This document shows, in pieces, positions 1,576-29,729 of a stretch of 64,000 nt of DNA. Each line of letters begins with the position of its first letter. Positions within the stretch are counted from its first letter, which is position 1. Location: assembly GCA_017601225.1 (NCBI GenBank), contig JAFNIX010000005.1, forward strand, positions 55,831-119,830, read 5' to 3'. This stretch comes from Candidatus Brockarchaeota archaeon (GTDB lineage Archaea; Thermoproteota; EX4484-205; JAAOZP01). A program made the position numbers and the translations under genes. A model generated the notes under the pieces. The model searched no databases. It was not told the DNA's origin and worked only from the letters and a program-made list of their open reading frames with translations.

Positions 1576-4047
1576 TTACCATTTTAAATACTGCTTTTTC
1601 ATGAGAATGTATTTAATAAAATCGTTTATTATCAGCGAGAATATTGCGGAATACCCTAGCACTGTAAGCATGAGAATCGGAGGCAGCGGCTTTAGACTAG
1701 GCATGCCGAATAGCGCTATGAGGATCGCTACCGTTAAATCAAGCACCACTGCTATTAGTAAAGCTTTTCCAGGTTTAGAATGCCAGAAGTGTCCTCTCTC
1801 CCTTGCTACGAGTATTGAGAATAAGGCGAACAAGAGGAGTGTTTGGAAGCTGAACATATGTAGGGTTTGCTCGTCACTCAGTATGTTAAAGAATCTGATT
1901 CCGATGAATAGTAATCCGAATGCTTCTAGAACCATGAGTGAACCCAGAATTATTGCCACTTTCATGAGTCCTGTTATGTTCCATTTGCAGGGGTTCTTAG
2001 ACCATCTTACATTATCAGTGGATAAAGATATTTTCACGAAATCCGTCATAAATAGCATTAGGAGCATTGCAGAAGAAGATATAACGTACTTGCCCGTAAG
2101 CAGGAAGGCTGAAACCACAAAGACGGTCTTCAGTATGGTTCTAGTTATCTTGTTCAGAATCCAAGTGTTTATTCTTTCGAATATGGATCTGCCGATTTCA
2201 ACCAGAGTCAACATGCTTGTTAAACCCTCGCTGGTCAGCACAACGCTGGCAGCTCCTTTAGCCACATCAGTGGCGTTTGCAACAGCTATGCCTACTTCAG
2301 CCTGCCTTAAGGCGGGTGCATCATTCACACCGTCACCAGTCATTCCAACTATGTGAGCCCTCTCCTGAAGACTCTTCACAATCACGTATTTATCTTCAGG
2401 ATAAACCTCCGCGAAGCCACTGCTTCCCTCAGCTATTTCTCCAGCCCTAGATTGATCGCCCTTCATGAGCTCTTTAAGCTCTGACGCTTTGATCACATTG
2501 TTTCCGAGGCCGATCTCCTTTGCTATTTCCTTGGCTATTGGTAACGCATCGCCTGTCATCATCTTGACAGCCACGCCTAGGCTTTTAAGCTCCTCAATAA
2601 GGTTTTTAGCATCCGGTCTGGGCGCGTCATATAATGCTGCCAGCCCCACGAGTTCAAACGATTCATCCCCAATAGATTTCGCCACAGCTATTGTTCGATA
2701 ACCCCTCTGAGTGAACTTGTCAACTTTCTCCATGACCTCCTTTAACCTGTTATCATCCAGCCTACATATTTCAGCCACAGTGTTAACAGCACCTTTGACA
2801 ACCCTGAACTCTGAACCATTAACCTGTATTAGTGCCTCAGTTCTACGCGTCTTAGGATCGAACGGTATGAAAGATTTCTGCGTGAAATCGTCAAGAGGCA
2901 ATTTTCTCCGCCTAGCCATGTCTATGAAGGCCAAGTCTATCGGGTCCTGATTAGCCTCCTGAGAAGCTAAGGCTCCGCAGAGAATAACCTCATCCTCATC
3001 ATGGTTGCCCAGCGGCTTTACATCAACCATAGAAAGCCTATTCATCGTTATTGTACCTGTTTTATCTACACATAGAACATCCATGCTTGCAGCATCATCG
3101 GACGCGCTGAGCCTCGTTACCAACACGTTTTTACCGGCTAGCTCCATGGATCCCACAGCCATGCTGACCGTAAACATGGCTGGTAAAGCAACTGGTACAG
3201 CACCCAGCATTAATACGAGCATTAACGGCAAAATTTCCAGCAAGTCTATTCCCCTGATCACGGAGAATATTGCTGCTATGCACAGCATTACTCCAACTAT
3301 GACTAGAAGCCATTTGAGGACTCTGGAGACCACTTCCTCCATGTGCAGTTTAGGACGTGCAACTTGAACGAGCTGAGCTGTCCTGCCAAAATACGTTTTA
3401 ACGCCTGTAAGCACAACTATGCCGGTGGATTCTCCCCGCCTTATAATGGAGCCCGAGTACAATATGTCACCTAGCCTCTTCTCAACCTCCATAGATTCAC
3501 CGGTTAATGCTGACTGGTCAACCCAAACCTCACCGATAGCGATTTTAATATCTGCTGGAACAAAGTCACCAGCCCTGACTCTAACAACATCTCCAGGTAC
3601 AAGCTCTCTCGATGGAACTAGCCTCCAAACACCATCCCTGAGAACCCTAGCGTTAATTTGAAGCTTACTCTTTAGAAGTTCCACGGCTTTAGAAGCCCTC
3701 TGTTCTTGAATAAACCCCAATATAGAGTTTAATACGAGCAAGGCCGTTACAGTGTATAAGTCTATATATTTACCCAGTACAAGTGCGAGGACTATTATGG
3801 CCTCAAGCATCCAAGCAGTTAAACCCCAAAACTTCCTGACAAACAAAACAATAGGATGAACTTTTTTCTCAGGGACCTCGTTGTAACCATACTGCTTTAA
3901 TCTGCGATCAACTTCGCTTTGACTTAATCCCAAGCCTAAATCAGTTTTCAGAAGATTTACAGTTTCCTCTATAGTCTTTTTCCGGAAGTCTTGCATTACA
4001 TTGTTCATAGGCTTCATCAAGTTATTCATTTTTAAGTCTATTGGCAA
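1576..4047 (-). CDS. P-type cation-transporting ATPase, type IIIA (plasma-membrane H+-ATPase-like, cf. archaeal MJ1226-type)
   Basis: 823 aa. Phosphorylation motif CVDKTGTITMN, hinge MTGDGVNDAPALRQAEVGIAV, and an N-terminal YGYNEVPEKK segment typical of PMA-type pumps. About 10 TM helices. Confidence 0.8.
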   Translation of the reverse strand: MPIDLKMNNLMKPMNNVMQDFRKKTIEETVNLLKTDLGLGLSQSEVDRRLKQYGYNEVPEKKVHPIVLFVRKFWGLTAWMLEAIIVLALVLGKYIDLYTVTALLVLNSILGFIQEQRASKAVELLKSKLQINARVLRDGVWRLVPSRELVPGDVVRVRAGDFVPADIKIAIGEVWVDQSALTGESMEVEKRLGDILYSGSIIRRGESTGIVVLTGVKTYFGRTAQLVQVARPKLHMEEVVSRVLKWLLVIVGVMLCIAAIFSVIRGIDLLEILPLMLVLMLGAVPVALPAMFTVSMAVGSMELAGKNVLVTRLSASDDAASMDVLCVDKTGTITMNRLSMVDVKPLGNHDEDEVILCGALASQEANQDPIDLAFIDMARRRKLPLDDFTQKSFIPFDPKTRRTEALIQVNGSEFRVVKGAVNTVAEICRLDDNRLKEVMEKVDKFTQRGYRTIAVAKSIGDESFELVGLAALYDAPRPDAKNLIEELKSLGVAVKMMTGDALPIAKEIAKEIGLGNNVIKASELKELMKGDQSRAGEIAEGSSGFAEVYPEDKYVIVKSLQERAHIVGMTGDGVNDAPALRQAEVGIAVANATDVAKGAASVVLTSEGLTSMLTLVEIGRSIFERINTWILNKITRTILKTVFVVSAFLLTGKYVISSSAMLLMLFMTDFVKISLSTDNVRWSKNPCKWNITGLMKVAIILGSLMVLEAFGLLFIGIRFFNILSDEQTLHMFSFQTLLLFALFSILVARERGHFWHSKPGKALLIAVVLDLTVAILIALFGMPSLKPLPPILMLTVLGYSAIFSLIINDFIKYILMKKQYLKW

Positions 4048-4140
4048 GTTCCCCTTACAGATGCAATAGCACGCGTTATCTTACTTTCGACTTTATAAGA
4101 ATCCACTAAGGATAGATTTAAAAGAAGTTTAAAGAGTGAA

Positions 4141-5154
4141 ATGAAAGAGGTGAGCGTGATACCTTTGTATTGTCCTAAATGTGGTGCACAACTTCCAGAT
4201 GACGCAATATTTTGCATGAAATGTGGAGTTAGGATTTCTGCTTCACCTGCGCCGCAGGCTCCATTAACACCTGTTATCGCCTCCTTAGAAGCTAAATCGC
4301 TTACGTGTCCTCACTGTGGGGCTCCAATTACGCCGAAATTCGGTGAAATGATTATAAGTTGTGAGTACTGTGGAACCGCCGTAGTATTGGAAAGTGAAGG
4401 TTGGAGAGGCATACATAAGCAAACAATGCTGCCGCTTAAGTTGGCGGAACGAGACAAAGTAGTTACTGAAATTCGCAGCCTAATGGACAGGGGGTTGTTG
4501 CATAGACACCTTTATGAGGGATCAACGCTGGAGGAAATGAACTTAAGCTTCGTTCCATACTGGATTGTCTCAGTTTCAGCAAGAACCTCGATAATAGCCA
4601 GCGACATAGCAGTTCAAGCTGGAGAAATCGCCACAACAGCAGCTCTCTTCGGCATTATGGGATCAGCAATGAGTGGCAGAAGACGCGGAGTAGGCATAGC
4701 AGGGCCTATTCTTGCAGGGGCAATGCTTGGCACCACGATGGGACCTAGCCAAGCAGGTGCAAAAAGAGCTTATCAAATGGATAATAACTACAACTTAGCC
4801 ATTGTAGCTGTCAAAGCATTTAACGAGTATCAGCCAAAGAGCTATCAATTCAACTTGCATGAGAGAATGCTTTTTGATATTTCTAAAATTCCAAAAGGCG
4901 TAAAAATCTTGAATGGAGACGTAGGGGAGGAATCGGCAAAATATCAGGCGAAAACTCTCGCAGACCAACTGCAATCAGAGAAGGCGCATGCACAGTACCA
5001 TATGATCCAACAGCTTCACACGGATGTGGATATTGCAGAAACCGAGCTGCTTTATGCGCCAATATGGTTCGCCCAATACGACCATAAAGGCAATAAGATA
5101 ATCCTTATCATTGATGGCAACTCCGGGGGCGTAATCAACAGCATAGGTCTATGA
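4141..5154 (+). CDS. hypothetical protein with two N-terminal zinc ribbons (CPKCG..CMKCG; CPHCG..CEYCG) and a Gly-rich hydrophobic middle segment
   Basis: 337 aa ORF with four CxxC pairs in the first 80 aa. No recognisable catalytic motif. Its last codons overlap the stop of an antisense MFS fragment. Confidence 0.5.
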   Translation: MKEVSVIPLYCPKCGAQLPDDAIFCMKCGVRISASPAPQAPLTPVIASLEAKSLTCPHCGAPITPKFGEMIISCEYCGTAVVLESEGWRGIHKQTMLPLKLAERDKVVTEIRSLMDRGLLHRHLYEGSTLEEMNLSFVPYWIVSVSARTSIIASDIAVQAGEIATTAALFGIMGSAMSGRRRGVGIAGPILAGAMLGTTMGPSQAGAKRAYQMDNNYNLAIVAVKAFNEYQPKSYQFNLHERMLFDISKIPKGVKILNGDVGEESAKYQAKTLADQLQSEKAHAQYHMIQQLHTDVDIAETELLYAPIWFAQYDHKGNKIILIIDGNSGGVINSIGL

Positions 5155-23978: not shown

Positions 23979-24212
23979 TTAATCTGGGGAGAAAGATATC
24001 AGGGTCTCCGTGTGCTCCACGTGCTCAAGCTTCTCCAGAACCTCATATATGGTTTTTCTGAGTTCCTCCAGGCTCTTAGATTCTATAACCAGTACTGCAT
24101 CATACCTTCCTAGGACAGAATTAGCCAGTTTAACACCCTTGATCCTTCTTGCCCTTACGACTTCTTCAGAAGTACCGGGCTTTGTTCTAACTAGGATGAA
24201 GGCCCTGATCAT
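23979..24212 (-). CDS. stand-alone Lrp/AsnC ligand-binding (RAM) domain protein
   Basis: 77 aa. The beta-alpha-beta-beta-alpha-beta RAM pattern (ILVRTKPG..VLGRYDAVLVIES) with no HTH domain. Confidence 0.6.
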   Translation of the reverse strand: MIRAFILVRTKPGTSEEVVRARRIKGVKLANSVLGRYDAVLVIESKSLEELRKTIYEVLEKLEHVEHTETLISFSPD

Positions 24213-24218
24213 TTCAAG

Positions 24219-24452
24219 TCACTGCAGAACTATTGAGGTTTCCGTTCTAACTATATTCGGAATCTTCTCAATAACCTCGTAAAGCAACCTAGTTAATTCC
24301 TCAGGACTCTCGGCTTCCACGGACACCACCACGTCGAACCTACCGTAGATAGGGTCAGCCGAATGAACACCCCTAATCTTCTTAATTTCGTTTGAAACCT
24401 CTATGGATGTTCCGGGCTTCGTCACTATGAACACGTATGCTTTAACAACCAT
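24219..24452 (-). CDS. stand-alone Lrp/AsnC ligand-binding (RAM) domain protein, tandem paralog
   Basis: 77 aa. About 50% identical to the neighbour (YVFIVTKPGTS..PIYGRFDVVVSVEA). Confidence 0.6.
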   Translation of the reverse strand: MVVKAYVFIVTKPGTSIEVSNEIKKIRGVHSADPIYGRFDVVVSVEAESPEELTRLLYEVIEKIPNIVRTETSIVLQ

Positions 24453-24991: not shown

Positions 24992-25442
24992 GTGGTATTC
25001 CTAAAAACTCCACTTCTCCCTTGTTTTTACCCCAGTTTGACCCCCTACAGAACTCGCCAGCTTTTTTTAAACGATGTCGTTTTCGCATACATCTTCGGCA
25101 GCAGATCTAGAAACCCAGTTAGGGAGTACAGTGATTACGATATCGCTGTGTTTTTTAGAAACAATAATGTTAGCCTGTTGGACGAAATAACTCTTGGAGC
25201 TAGATATCGCTGAAACCCTCAGAATTCCGGCGGATAAGGTTGACATTGTGGCGTTGAATAAGGCGGATACGATCTTAATAGCGAGGGTTTTCAAAGAGGG
25301 TGGAGTGATTTACTCGGATGACAAGGATTTAAGGAGGAAATGGGAGAGGGAAACGTATTTGAAGATACTTGAGGAAACCAGCTTGACAAACGTTTACGTG
25401 AACAGAGTGCTTAAGAAGAGGCTTGGAACGGACGGATGCTAA
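24992..25442 (+). pseudogene. minimal nucleotidyltransferase (MNT, Pol-beta-like; toxin-antitoxin-type) split by a frameshift near nt 25185-25196
   Basis: The upstream frame encodes VVFAYIFGSRSRN..SDYDIAVFF (the GS/DxD NTase motif). The downstream frame continues with LELDIAETLRIPADKVDIVALNKAD, which is the typical MNT C-terminal part. Confidence 0.5.
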
Positions 25443-25604
25443 AATTTTGAACGGAAGAAATTATAGTGTATGCTTAGGAGCGGATTGTCGAACTCGACAT
25501 GGCAGAATCTGGCGTGATTGCTGGCAGTTGATGACTTGAATGAGTGTGCCTCGAGCGAATCAAAACCTAAAAGCTTAAATAGGTAGTAAAAAGTATTACT
25601 TGGT

Positions 25605-25874
25605 ATGACCAATATTAAGATAAGCATAAGCATTCCAGAAGCTGTTCTGAAGAGGGTAGACGCTCTTTGTAAGCAGTTGAACATGGCTAGAAGCGAGGCC
25701 ATAGCTAGAATATTGGAGGAAAAGCTGGGAGCAGAAGTTGAAGCCAAAGACCATAGGTATCCAACGGTTTTATGGAAGCTGAGCTCAACCGGCTACCTCA
25801 GGCTCAGATCCCCGCGTATACGTGGCAGGTCGATTAAGGGGAAGTGGGTTGTCGAGGAGGTTGAAGAAAAGTGA
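25605..25874 (+). CDS. ribbon-helix-helix (CopG/RHH_1) DNA-binding protein
   Basis: 89 aa. The N-terminal ISISIPEAVLKRVDALCKQLNMARSEAIARILEE is a textbook RHH. Confidence 0.65.
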   Translation: MTNIKISISIPEAVLKRVDALCKQLNMARSEAIARILEEKLGAEVEAKDHRYPTVLWKLSSTGYLRLRSPRIRGRSIKGKWVVEEVEEK

Positions 25875-26305
25875 AGATTAGCTACCACTATGCAGAGGAC
25901 GGGTATACGGATCACGGGGAAAAAATACCAGATATCCCGGTCGTTCACCTCGTTATTAGGGCCGGTAAATATCGGGCGCATGGGGCGGCTATAATCGACA
26001 CTGGCTTTGACGGCGGGATATATCCCAACATGGAGATAGTGAGAATGTTCGAAGGAGTTGAGCCGACCGCAAAAACTATCTTTGAAAATCCTCTGTACGG
26101 CGCCTCGGAGTTTGAGATATACATGGGGGAGGCTTCTCTATACTATGGCGGGAAACAGATAGGTCTCGGCAGGGTCAGGGTTTACATCCCTACCGAGCCC
26201 GAACTCTTGACGGGCGAAGTACTCGTAGGCAGGGAGGTTTTAAACAATAAAATAATGTCACTGGCAATGAATATGCGTAAAAAACGAGTCCTTCTAGAGC
26301 TTTAG
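25871..26305 (+). CDS. retropepsin-like (clan AA) aspartic-peptidase-domain protein
   Basis: 144 aa. GAAIIDTGFDGG (hydrophobic-hydrophobic-D-T-G) and downstream VLVGREVL (GR[DNE]hL flap/dimer motif). GTGA start-stop overlap with the RHH gene. Confidence 0.4.
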   Translation: MKISYHYAEDGYTDHGEKIPDIPVVHLVIRAGKYRAHGAAIIDTGFDGGIYPNMEIVRMFEGVEPTAKTIFENPLYGASEFEIYMGEASLYYGGKQIGLGRVRVYIPTEPELLTGEVLVGREVLNNKIMSLAMNMRKKRVLLEL

Positions 26306-26424: not shown

Positions 26425-26637
26425 ATGTTCACAAGCCTGATTAAGAATCAGGGCTTCGGGGCTGCACTGGTTATTGCGGCTAGCGCCGCTTCAATATCAT
26501 GGACCTATGAAGTATTGAAAAAGCTTTACAGAGTTCTTCAGATCAAGCTATTACCGGGCAGGCTTATAATAAGCATAGGGTTCTTCACATTACTGCTGAC
26601 GGCGAAAGCAATATACTCGTGGCAAACTCAAAACTGA
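26425..26637 (+). CDS. small hypothetical membrane protein (2 TM)
   Basis: 70 aa ORF with two hydrophobic helices. No other support. Confidence 0.2.
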   Translation: MFTSLIKNQGFGAALVIAASAASISWTYEVLKKLYRVLQIKLLPGRLIISIGFFTLLLTAKAIYSWQTQN

Positions 26638-26934: not shown

Positions 26935-28419
26935 ATGCTTGCCGAGAGCTGTGGCGTGTTTGGGGCGAAGTGTTTAGACGGAAGGTGTGTTTTCGACCTT
27001 TTATACTGGGGGCTTGTGGCGCAGAACCATCGGGGTCATGAGTCATATGGTTTTTTAACTTGTGCGGAGGGTTTCAGGCGTCACGTGAACGTTGGGCTTG
27101 TCCCACAGATTTTTGGTGAAAGGTATTCCAGGTGGCGCAACTTTCTTCAGGGTTCTACCGGTATTGCTCACGTCAGGTATGGCACCTCGGGGGATAGGGG
27201 TTCCTCTTCTCGCCTGAATGATGCTCAGCCGTTGATCTCTTCACACGGGAGGGAGAAGATCGGTTTCGCTTTCAACGGTAATATTGTTAACGTTAACGAG
27301 CTTAGGAGTCGTCTGAAGGCTTCCGAGGGTTTTGAAGCGGGCTGTGACGCGGCTGTTTTGTCGAAAATACTTGTCACGAGTATTGATGGCGGCTTGACCA
27401 GTGGTGTTGAACGTTGCATGAGGGATGTTGAAGGAGCCTTCTCTGTCGTGGGCCTGAGGCCTAACGGGGAGCTTTTCGCCTTCAGGGATCCGTTGGGTAT
27501 TAGGCCTCTCAGCATCGGGGTTAGCGAGGATGGTGCGGTTAATGCTTTCTCCTCCGAGACTGTTGGGCTTGACATTAACGGGCTTAGGTTTATGGATGAT
27601 GTTAAGCCTGGTGAGATTGTTGTCTTCAGCAGGGATGGTGTTGAAAGGGAAAGGCTTGTGAAGAAGGATAGGTCTGCTTTCTGCGCTTTCGAATACGCTT
27701 ACTTCGCTAGGCCTGATTCCCTGCTCAACGGAAAGTATGTGTTCAGCGTGCGGGAGGAGTTTGGCAGAAACCTTGGGAGGAGGTTTAGGGATGTTGTTGA
27801 GAAATCGGATGTGATTCTTTCAATGCCTGAGACTGCTGAGGACGCTGCGTACGGTCTGCATGAGGAGACAGGCTTGAAATGGGAGAGGATACTGAGGAGG
27901 CACAGGTATGTTACCCAGAGGGCTTTCATTCTTGAGCCCAGTGAAAGGGTTTCAACCATCGATAAAAAGGTGAACATTATGAACGGGAGGCTTAAGGGTA
28001 AAAAGGTTATTGTTGTCGACGACAGTATTGTCAGGGGTGATACAACTAGGACTGTGGTCAGGAAGCTTAGGAGGGCTGGCGCCGAAAAAGTCTATCTATT
28101 CATTACTTTCCCACGGATAACTCACCCGTGTTTCTACGGTGTTGACATGGCTACTTTCACAGAGCTCATCGGCTTCAGGTTTGACGAGGAGGGTGTTGCG
28201 AAGCATGTTGGCGCCGACGGGGTTTTCTACCAGCCTCTGGAAGACTACGTCAGGGCCACGGGAATGAGGTTCAACGAGCTTTGCCTAGCCTGCGTCACGG
28301 GCGAGTATCCGACTGAGCTTGCTCAGAAGATGGCTGACGCGGCCAAGGCTTCGACAGACATGGACGAGAGGAGGATCTATGAGAGGGCTGAGCTCACGAG
28401 GCTGGGGGGATCCACATGA
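26935..28419 (+). CDS. purF: amidophosphoribosyltransferase
   Basis: 494 aa. N-terminal CGVFG (Cys1 nucleophile after propeptide), NHRGHESYG, the class-II GATase FAFNGNIVNVNEL, and the PRTase motif VVDDSIVRGDTTR. Confidence 0.85.
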   Translation: MLAESCGVFGAKCLDGRCVFDLLYWGLVAQNHRGHESYGFLTCAEGFRRHVNVGLVPQIFGERYSRWRNFLQGSTGIAHVRYGTSGDRGSSSRLNDAQPLISSHGREKIGFAFNGNIVNVNELRSRLKASEGFEAGCDAAVLSKILVTSIDGGLTSGVERCMRDVEGAFSVVGLRPNGELFAFRDPLGIRPLSIGVSEDGAVNAFSSETVGLDINGLRFMDDVKPGEIVVFSRDGVERERLVKKDRSAFCAFEYAYFARPDSLLNGKYVFSVREEFGRNLGRRFRDVVEKSDVILSMPETAEDAAYGLHEETGLKWERILRRHRYVTQRAFILEPSERVSTIDKKVNIMNGRLKGKKVIVVDDSIVRGDTTRTVVRKLRRAGAEKVYLFITFPRITHPCFYGVDMATFTELIGFRFDEEGVAKHVGADGVFYQPLEDYVRATGMRFNELCLACVTGEYPTELAQKMADAAKASTDMDERRIYERAELTRLGGST

Positions 28420-29729
28420 CGGGGATTCTGGGAATCTACCTTTTCGACGAGAAGTGGAATGCCGGGAGCTTCGGAATATACGGGTTGATGGCTCTGCAAC
28501 ACAGGGGTCAGGAGACGGCTGGAATTGAACTCATCGGGCAGGCTAGGCGGAGAGTTTTCGGGAAAGGCTTGGTTGAAGATGTTTTAAGCCACCTTGGTGC
28601 TGAGGGGCATATTTGTGTGGGCGCAGTTTCTCCTTATCCTGTTGAAGCCGAGGAGGATGTCCAGCCTCTCGCCTTCAATGAGAAAGTAACAGTAGCTTTA
28701 GACGGCAGAGTAACTAGGGTTGAAGGATATTCTTGGGATGCTTCGCTAAGCTACGAGGGTAACCTGAGGAAGGCTTTCGCAAGCTTCGCTGGGCCCAGGG
28801 GTGAAATAGAGACTGTTAAAGAGTTTTTCGACAACTGTAGGGGTGGCTTCGCCTACATTGCTGTGAACCATCGGATGGAGATGGTTGCGGGAAGGTGCAG
28901 CCTTGGTGTTAAGCCACTTGTGCTCGGTAAATTCGGGTTTGAAGGCGGGATTGTTGCTTCCGAGAGCTGCGTTATGGATGTTATTGGCGAGAGGGTTCCG
29001 ATAAGCCCTGCGGAGAATATTGAGGCTGGGGACGCGATGGTTTTCACACCCTTCTCAGCACGCTTGGTTAAGGGTGGCGATTCATCAAGCAGGGCCTACT
29101 GCAGCTTTGAATACGTGTATCTGGCTAGGCCTGACTCATATATTAACGATATTCCGATATACAGGGTTAGGAGGAACATAGGCAGGAAGCTTTCTGAGGA
29201 AGACAGGGTTGACGCGGACGTGGTGATAGGTGTTCCTGAGACGGCAATACCCTTCGCGATGGCATACTCTAACGAGACGGGTATACCTATAGAGAAGGGT
29301 TTCGAGCTTACTGGAAGGAGGGTTAGGAGCGCTCTGAGGCCGGATCAGTTTGAAAGGCTCAAAGGTGTTCAGCTTAAGCTGAACGTTATCAGCGAGGCTG
29401 TTAGGGGTAAAAGGGTTATCCTGATTGATGACAGCGTCGTACGGGGAAATACTCTTGCAAACATAGTCTACTTGATGAAGGAGAAGGGCGCTAAGGAGAT
29501 ACATGTCAGAATAGGGAGTCCGCATATTGTTTCACACTGTCCCTTCGGAGTTGAGGTTCCACCTGAGGATGAGCTTATTGGGAGACACTTGTCTGAGGAG
29601 AAGATCGCCGAGGTTGTTGGTGCAGACTCTTTCAAATACCTTAGTGTTGAGAGCTTGATTGAGGCGATCGGCTTGAAGAGGGATGAGCTTTGCCTGGGCT
29701 GCTTTAACTGTGTTTACCCGGAGGTGTAG
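28416..29729 (+). CDS. PurF-like paralog (amidophosphoribosyltransferase-like) with degenerate glutaminase site
   Basis: 437 aa. ATGA overlap with purF. Starts M-T-G-I-L-G (Thr where Cys1 should be). LQHRGQETAGI is conserved, but the NGN oxyanion motif reads DGR. The PRTase motif LIDDSVVRGNT is intact. Confidence 0.7.
   Translation: MTGILGIYLFDEKWNAGSFGIYGLMALQHRGQETAGIELIGQARRRVFGKGLVEDVLSHLGAEGHICVGAVSPYPVEAEEDVQPLAFNEKVTVALDGRVTRVEGYSWDASLSYEGNLRKAFASFAGPRGEIETVKEFFDNCRGGFAYIAVNHRMEMVAGRCSLGVKPLVLGKFGFEGGIVASESCVMDVIGERVPISPAENIEAGDAMVFTPFSARLVKGGDSSSRAYCSFEYVYLARPDSYINDIPIYRVRRNIGRKLSEEDRVDADVVIGVPETAIPFAMAYSNETGIPIEKGFELTGRRVRSALRPDQFERLKGVQLKLNVISEAVRGKRVILIDDSVVRGNTLANIVYLMKEKGAKEIHVRIGSPHIVSHCPFGVEVPPEDELIGRHLSEEKIAEVVGADSFKYLSVESLIEAIGLKRDELCLGCFNCVYPEV

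Follow-up and report, generated by a model that had tools for sequence, protein, structure and literature searches.

What is a DNA-binding protein of the antitoxin kind doing in an overlapping gene pair with an aspartic protease? The question is raised by a stretch of 64,000 nucleotides from a Candidatus (Ca.) Brockarchaeota archaeon (contig JAFNIX010000005.1, positions 55,831 to 119,830; hereafter the window). Within it, an 89-amino-acid (aa) ribbon-helix-helix (RHH; CopG-family) protein, probably an antitoxin-like repressor, is encoded by the open reading frame ORF1 (25605–25874, + strand, ATG start), and a predicted retropepsin-like (clan AA) aspartic protease of 144 aa by ORF2 (25871–26305, + strand, GTG start). 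The GTG start of ORF2 (25871–25873) overlaps the TGA stop of ORF1 (25872–25874) to give GTGA at 25871–25874, and the whole cassette measures ~730 bp. A first-pass annotation, made from the letters of this DNA, had given these coordinates, lengths and overlap, all of which were borne out when the sequence was read again. In the public records, which come from metagenome-assembled genomes (MAGs) of Ca. Brockarchaeota / Thermoproteota, ORF1 is labelled 'CopG family' and ORF2 'hypothetical protein'.

The bioinformatic evidence strongly supports reading the pair as a conserved module. We put the probability at roughly 50% that this module is an autoregulated type II toxin-antitoxin (TA)-like cassette in which the effector is a dimeric aspartic protease restrained by the C-terminal tail of the RHH protein.

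The gene pair recurs across thermophilic archaea

A scan of 185,579 species-representative genomes, one per species, returned 42 protease loci. All are archaeal and they span Thermoproteota, Bathyarchaeia, Methanomethylicota, several Asgard lineages, Hadesarchaea, Methanobacteriota and one distant Thermoplasmata relative. An RHH gene lies immediately 5′ of the protease gene, with stop and start overlapping or abutting, in 38 of the 42 loci, and the other four are frameshifted or partial, except the distant Thermoplasmata locus (L054). Homologues with 39–60% identity have unrelated neighbours, and in every case an RHH gene of ~88–94 aa overlaps the protease start. The reverse search, which recovered metagenomic loci by the RHH tail motif YPTVLWKL, gave 80 loci, 79 of them with enough downstream sequence; in 70 of the 79, a protease gene follows the RHH-tail gene immediately, with a spacing of −7 to +36 nt. 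The pair suspected at this one locus is thus seen in about 110 independent loci with the same spacing, all within a family confined to hot-spring and hydrothermal archaea.

The two proteins co-evolve, with pairwise identities of the RHH protein and the protease correlating at r = 0.88 (78 unique pairs). Among close relatives (14 loci), purifying selection acts on all three parts, with median ratios of non-synonymous to synonymous substitution rates (dN/dS) of 0.10 (protease), 0.09 (RHH domain) and 0.14 (tail).

The Thermoplasmata locus differs in its details. There, two overlapping genes at 3600–3896 and 3893–4273 comprise a DTGF retropepsin-like gene that is nearer to the NCBIfam model TIGR03698 (E = 2.8e-10) and, preceding it, an ATGA-overlapping 98-aa ORF that is not RHH and has no family match. 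Only four relatives were found, and the one additional contig begins at the gene. The arrangement hints that small upstream partners of differing kinds may accompany this protease superfamily.

ORF2 has a predicted retropepsin fold

ORF2 has both sequence motifs expected of clan AA, namely hydrophobic-hydrophobic-Asp-Thr/Ser-Gly and hydrophobic-hydrophobic-Gly(-Arg-Asn/Asp/Glu) followed by a helix. The catalytic signature D43-T-G-F-D-G-G (25997–26017, + strand), which with the residues before the catalytic Asp reads A-I-I-D43-T-G-F-D-G-G, is unchanged in 38 of 38 aligned homologues. The second retropepsin signature, V-L-V-G120-R121-E122-V-L-N125 (26219–26245, + strand), is recognizable in both the alignment and the structure model. 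In this 38-sequence family alignment, which reaches down to 37% identity, D43, T44, G45, F46, D47, G48, G49, R121, E122 and N125 are invariant, and V117, L118 and G120 are conserved in at least 90% of sequences. A 'DTG/ILG template' has been described for the second clan AA motif plus helix (PMC2642776).

The family is small and lies outside curated models. Homologues of ORF2 fall into about 62 clusters (at 90% identity) when a single sequence is used as the query and 257 with the family profile; none of these clusters carries an annotation or a Pfam domain. Only 40 matches came from an exhaustive search of 1.84 billion representatives, which is why we call the family small. Neither ORF2 nor any of its 38 relatives matched a Pfam family at E ≤ 1, the clan-AA families Asp_protease_2, gag-asp_proteas, RVP and Asp_protease included. 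ORF2 has a weak full-length match to TIGR03698, clan_AA_DTGF (E = 0.042; 14.2 bits, cut-off 57.35), and 30 of the 38 relatives also give weak full-length matches to this model (best E = 7e-6), far under the 57.35-bit cut-off; none of the 38 matched any other protease model. By these profile comparisons, ORF2 is best described as a distant relative of TIGR03698, not as a member of it or of any Pfam clan-AA family.

No PDB chain was matched at the sequence level by ORF2 or by the family profile. An AlphaFold2 model built from the family alignment had a predicted local distance difference test score (pLDDT) of 93.2 and a predicted template-modelling (pTM) score of 0.85. It starts with an N-terminal strand and a hairpin that runs into the DTG loop, followed by a long hairpin (residues 77–107) at the position of the retropepsin flap, the hydrophobic-hydrophobic-Gly strand (117–119), a helix (121–127) and C-terminal strands, which is the order of secondary-structure elements in retropepsin. 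When this model was compared with the PDB by Foldseek, ranks 1–10 were all retropepsins (E = 1.3e-5 to 2.6e-3, probability 1.00). The best was Rickettsia APRc (5c9f_A; E = 1.3e-5, TM 0.61/0.65), followed by the proteases of equine infectious anaemia virus (EIAV), human T-lymphotropic virus 1 (HTLV-1), Rous sarcoma virus (RSV) and feline immunodeficiency virus (FIV). Aspartic proteases were also the top matches in a viral structure library (BFVD).

The model confidently predicts a clan AA retropepsin fold, and the family is a distinct, previously unmodelled branch. By analogy with known retropepsins, ORF2 would be expected to homodimerize and to be proteolytic. Most of what the first-pass annotation had claimed for this protein stands: the hydrophobic-hydrophobic-DTG and downstream G-R-E motifs can both be read, with D43, T44, G45, R121 and E122 invariant, and the fold agrees. 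The profile search that it had suggested gave the weak TIGR03698 similarity and no Pfam match. None of the three outcomes that it had named as refuting was observed: the predicted fold is that of a retropepsin, DTG is invariant in the homologues and the pair co-occurs elsewhere. Its 'retropepsin/DDI1-type' assignment holds for retropepsins generally, the closest being APRc and TIGR03698, and not for DDI1 specifically.

The RHH protein ends in a highly conserved tail

ORF1 matches Pfam RHH_1 (PF01402; E = 1.3e-5) with 25.4 bits, over the gathering score of 20.5, as its initial assignment to the RHH proteins predicted, and has weaker likeness to models of the RHH antitoxins and regulators VapB, BrnA, RelB/DinJ and NikR. 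A single-sequence AlphaFold2 model of low confidence (pLDDT 68) has a beta-alpha-alpha arrangement over residues 4–41 (strand 4–9, helices 12–25 and 29–41). This RHH domain (4–41) is followed by a variable linker and a 38-aa tail.

The tail, residues 52–89 (25758–25871, + strand; YPTVLWKLSSTGYLRLRSPRIRGRSIKGKWVVEEVEEK), is the proposed protease-binding or neutralizing element. Its consensus is (K/R)-Y-P-T-V-L-W-K-L-x3-G-x-L-(K/R)-L-R-S-P-R-x2-G-R-x5-W-(V/I)-(V/I)-E. The main clade shows no variation at Y52, P53, T54, V55, L56, W57, K58, R68, S69, P70, W81 or E84, and conservation of P53, L56, S69, P70 and W81 is at least 90% across all clades; in a divergent clade, the tail opens with Gly-Pro instead of Tyr-Pro. 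The tail is the best-conserved part of the system, with a mean pairwise identity of 0.58, whereas the RHH domain has 0.48 and the protease 0.49. Three beta-strands are predicted in it by the low-confidence single-sequence model. In several pairwise comparisons, synonymous divergence (dS) in the part encoding the tail is roughly half the value for the protease gene (for example, 0.73 versus 1.55); a constraint on the nucleotides around the junction of the genes, or noise from a small sample, could explain this. RHH antitoxins with C-terminal neutralizing tails are standard components of type II TA systems, and this tail may likewise bind and neutralize the protease.

Operator-like repeats lie between the putative promoter and the start codon

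A TATA-like box, CTTAAATA (25574–25581, + strand), lies 24–31 nt 5′ of the ORF1 start codon and is the putative promoter; its closeness to the ATG implies a leaderless or near-leaderless transcript. Directly after it comes a putative RHH operator (25582–25608, + strand) of three half-sites: GGTAGTA (25582–25588), an inverted GTATTAC (25593–25599) and GGTATGA (25602–25608), the last of which overlaps the start codon. Binding of an RHH dimer of dimers to these sites would be predicted to block initiation.

The putative operator was exposed by comparison across loci. In 84 non-identical upstream regions aligned on the conserved RHH N-terminus, TATA-like motifs cluster 45–55 nt 5′ of the conserved K5 codon, and repeated GT(A/G)GTA / TAC(C/T)AC half-sites occupy the interval from the TATA-like box to the start codon. 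The 6-mers GTGGTA and GTAGTA are enriched 31-fold and 27-fold, respectively, and half-sites occur at 1.6 per 80 nt upstream versus 0.059 in background. Simple inverted-repeat, sigma-70 and terminator scans were uninformative for this archaeal promoter. The cassette promoter is the one place in the 64-kb window with the composite site GTRGTA-N3-8-TAYYAC; a wider regulon within the window was considered and rejected on this ground.

Cassettes vary in context and decay in both directions

In a census of 124 ORFs flanking 36 genome loci, we found 170 different Pfam families and no recurrent third gene. The commonest neighbours were Radical_SAM (8, several from one lineage), GNAT (4) and PIN (3) families, and no CRISPR genes were seen adjoining the studied loci. 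Between unrelated loci, nucleotide similarity is limited to the promoter and the two genes and ends at the cassette borders (for example, 80% identity over 752 nt between L049 and L048, and a 655-nt match between L024 and L026). One MAG carries two cassettes from different subclades (L022 and L048). In another locus (L053), the flanks are 95% identical to those of L049, and the cassette has diverged to 80% with its protease gene broken. In a congener of the source organism (L013), the cassette again follows the purM-RAM-RAM block, with other flanks and without the nucleotidyltransferase remnant described below.

Exceptions to the pairing are mostly decaying remnants, and these are of two kinds: RHH genes left as orphans and losing their tails, and proteases broken by frameshifts. 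Nine loci lack a protease downstream of the RHH tail. Six are orphan RHH genes from a single lineage (L060, L061, L067, L071, L087 and L088), the tails of which are truncated or internally deleted, with YPTVLWKL fused directly to RSPR; two are remnants (L062 and L134); and one has a different gene downstream (L131). Frameshifted proteases are found at P0032, L027, L044 and L053. The orphan RHH genes of the one lineage adjoin minimal nucleotidyltransferase (MNT)/HEPN-like genes and a gene for a 443-aa ATPase.

Two kinds of candidate observation were rejected. Of the apparent natural RHH–protease fusions, P0032 (208 aa) is a frameshifted protease and P0098 (1167 aa) a spurious repeat protein. 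Horizontal transfer between Asgard phyla was considered for L020 (Odinarchaeota) versus L029 (Baldrarchaeota) and for L021 (Jordarchaeia) versus L022/L023 (Freyarchaeota), which share 88–94% nucleotide identity over several kb. The flanks are as similar as the cassettes, and these are therefore the same lineages under different labels; at least some of these Asgard taxonomic labels are doubtful.

A toxin-antitoxin-like cassette is the favoured interpretation

Several of the features expected of a type II module are present. The cassette is bicistronic and conserved across genomes, with the antitoxin-like gene first and the genes overlapping or abutting. It also behaves as an accessory, possibly mobile element, as judged from its diverse neighbours, similarity restricted to the cassette, the MAG with two cassettes, and the orphan and frameshifted copies. 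TA logic fits because the antitoxin-like layout, gene overlap, putative operator, co-evolution, independence from neighbouring genes and pattern of decay all accord with it. The first-pass annotation had pointed to the TA-like layout at this locus, to which the conserved tail, operator-like sites, decayed and orphan copies and variable context now add support.

We propose a mechanism in which toxicity, inhibition, DNA binding and the trigger are all predictions from sequence. The RHH protein would dimerize, bind the GT(A/G)GTA half-sites between the TATA-like box and the start codon, and repress the operon. Its conserved, probably beta-rich tail would bind the co-translated protease and hold it inactive; the protease itself would have to homodimerize to build one active site out of two DTG loops. 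Were the RHH partner depleted or displaced, the promoter would be derepressed and free protease dimers could cleave cellular (or invader) proteins.

Several observations weigh against this interpretation. The protease matched no known toxin or defence family in PADLOC, PHROGs or the NCBIfam TA models, and the RHH protein had only a weak match in PADLOC-DB (E = 0.023 to PDC-M13B). The 124-ORF census gave no clear enrichment in defence genes among the neighbours of the cassette, and no copies were found on viral contigs, plasmids or phages. Most genomes carry a single copy, and the near-identity seen across phyla reflects shared ancestry or labelling and not transfer. Finally, the conserved Tyr-Pro at the start of the tail also resembles a retropepsin substrate.

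That last point leads to what we rank as the main rival, an unlikely one on balance: a regulator–protease switch resembling ImmR/ImmA, in which the protease is not a toxin and processes the RHH repressor at or near Tyr52-Pro53, parting the DNA-binding domain from the tail and altering repression on a signal such as pH or temperature. Tyr/Phe-Pro is a classical retropepsin scissile bond; every main-clade sequence has Tyr-Pro, and conservation of Pro53 reaches at least 90% across the clades. A co-encoded repressor and protease in the ImmR–ImmA gene order, and the tight co-evolution of the two proteins, would also suit a switch. Yet there are no cargo genes, neighbours are unrelated between loci, and the putative operator in the 64 kb lies only at the promoter of the cassette itself, so that such a switch would regulate only itself. 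The divergent clade, moreover, has Gly-Pro, and Gly is a poor retropepsin P1 residue, and a cleavage site alone would leave a 38-residue, beta-rich tail under purifying selection unexplained. Inhibitor and switch are compatible readings, because the tail can be an inhibitor as well as a slow substrate.

Distinctly unlikely, in our judgement, is a benign, thermophile-specific accessory peptidase that serves protein quality control or maturation and is regulated by the RHH protein, with the tail as an assembly or chaperone partner instead of an inhibitor. The restriction of the family to hot-spring and hydrothermal archaea, its mostly single copies, the position kept in the congener L013 and the strong purifying selection would all be natural for such an enzyme. 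A distribution as patchy as 42 loci in 185,579 genomes would not be, nor would unrelated contexts with similarity stopping at the cassette borders, or repeated pseudogenization and orphan RHH genes; a stop–start overlap and an antitoxin-like tail are likewise unexpected for an ordinary regulated peptidase. The 144-aa protein might instead be a non-enzyme that uses the retropepsin fold for peptide binding or as a scaffold, given that the family falls under the cut-offs of every curated clan-AA model. Non-catalytic derivatives usually lose their catalytic motifs, whereas D-T-G and G-R-E are invariant in 38 of 38 homologues; the invariance of the DTG makes this explanation very improbable. Chance adjacency or spurious ORFs would be suggested by the small size of the ORFs and nothing else, and is excluded, because the same pair recurs with the same spacing in about 110 independent loci, with dN/dS of about 0.1 and a confident structure model.

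Comparison with known systems

The TA-like cassette shares much with type II RHH modules such as ParD–ParE, FitA–FitB/VapB–VapC and TacA–TacT/AtaR–AtaT. In each, two small genes are joined by a stop/start overlap with the antitoxin-like gene first, an N-terminal RHH domain carries a conserved C-terminal extension, repeated or inverted operator half-sites (here putative) lie over the promoter, and a patchy distribution goes with variable context and orphan or decayed copies. The difference lies in the effector, which here is predicted to have the fold of a clan-AA aspartic protease and not to be a nuclease, gyrase poison, acetyltransferase or kinase; the protease matches no toxin model, and the family is found only in thermophilic archaea.

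Among proteases, ORF2 is structurally closest to APRc (5c9f) and the retroviral enzymes (EIAV, HTLV-1, RSV, FIV and human immunodeficiency virus (HIV)), with E = 1.3e-5 to 2e-3, TM up to 0.65 and 11–19% sequence identity; it shares with them the DTG loop and, ahead of a helix, the hydrophobic-hydrophobic-Gly-Arg motif. Unlike the cassette protease, APRc is the soluble domain of a membrane-anchored protein, the retroviral proteases are excised from polyproteins, and neither is paired with a DNA-binding partner. Single-domain prokaryotic retropepsin-like proteins of COG3577 and COG5550, including A. fulgidus AF_0612, have been described as functionally obscure (PMC2642776). ORF2 resembles the AF_0612 type (TIGR03698/COG5550) in having a single domain of about 110–150 aa and a DTGF catalytic motif, and differs from it by a conserved extension of ~24 residues at the N terminus and by its obligatory pairing with an RHH-tail protein.

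Two further systems resemble the cassette in layout or context. ImmR–ImmA and XRE–COG2856 pairs also combine a small DNA-binding repressor with a co-transcribed, dedicated protease in a TA-like layout, but they consist of a zinc metalloprotease and a helix-turn-helix repressor that control mobile element genes, whereas the cassette has no cargo. Saci_1895-type proteins of ~100 aa with a retropepsin domain are associated with type III CRISPR loci in Sulfolobales (PMC3973734). These, too, are small archaeal retropepsin-domain proteins in an accessory or defence-type context, but they are CRISPR-associated and have no reported RHH partner (PMC3973734), a comparison made by description only.

We found no description of an RHH–retropepsin pair, or of an aspartic-protease toxin, in the searchable full-text literature, although earlier mention in subscription journals is possible. 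The first-pass annotation had likewise recognized no described TA or defence type here, in agreement with the literature and with PADLOC. The cassette would thus appear to combine a familiar TA architecture with a new class of effector. We consider it possible, with the odds leaning a little the other way, that this is the first TA family with an aspartic (retropepsin-type) protease as its toxin, and with an RHH tail that is a natural inhibitor of a retropepsin dimer, in thermophilic TACK, Asgard and other archaea. TA effectors are mostly nucleases and protein- or nucleotide-modifying enzymes, and if the protease is indeed a toxin restrained by the tail, aspartic peptidases would be added to these chemistries. 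The orphan retropepsin-like proteins of COG5550/TIGR03698 would then gain a first functional context. The tail would be a genetically encoded, natural inhibitor of retropepsins from hyperthermophiles, and its structure would be of interest because retroviral proteases matter in pharmacology.

Neighbouring genes in the window

The cassette lies, as had been noted at the outset, between RAM-domain genes and pur genes. On its 5′ side are purM and two genes for 77-aa RAM (AsnC_trans_reg) proteins, and on its 3′ side are purF-like genes; the GC content of the cassette patch is unremarkable. The gene for an MNT/MntA-type nucleotidyltransferase near the pair, also reported by the first-pass annotation as frameshifted, is broken into two frames (24992–25213 and 25194–25442, + strand), and profile matches assign one piece to the N-terminal half of Polbeta/MntA and the other to the C-terminal half. 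No HEPN partner was seen close to this split gene in the window. The four assemblies of the source species all have the split, and the congener L013 lacks the gene.

The two RAM-domain genes (23979–24212 and 24219–24452, − strand) are adjacent, stand-alone and without a DNA-binding domain, and lie between purM and the accessory patch. Both are kept in L013 at 91–94% identity. Directly 3′ of the cassette is an ORF for a hydrophobic protein of 70 aa (26425–26637, + strand) that has no family match; of three related assemblies, just one annotates it as a gene. Beyond it are tandem, overlapping genes for PurF-like amidophosphoribosyltransferases (26935–28419 and 28416–29729, + strand). The first copy retains the cysteine of CGVFG; the second starts MTGILG and may be a glutaminase-dead paralogue, because Thr replaces the expected N-terminal nucleophile Cys.

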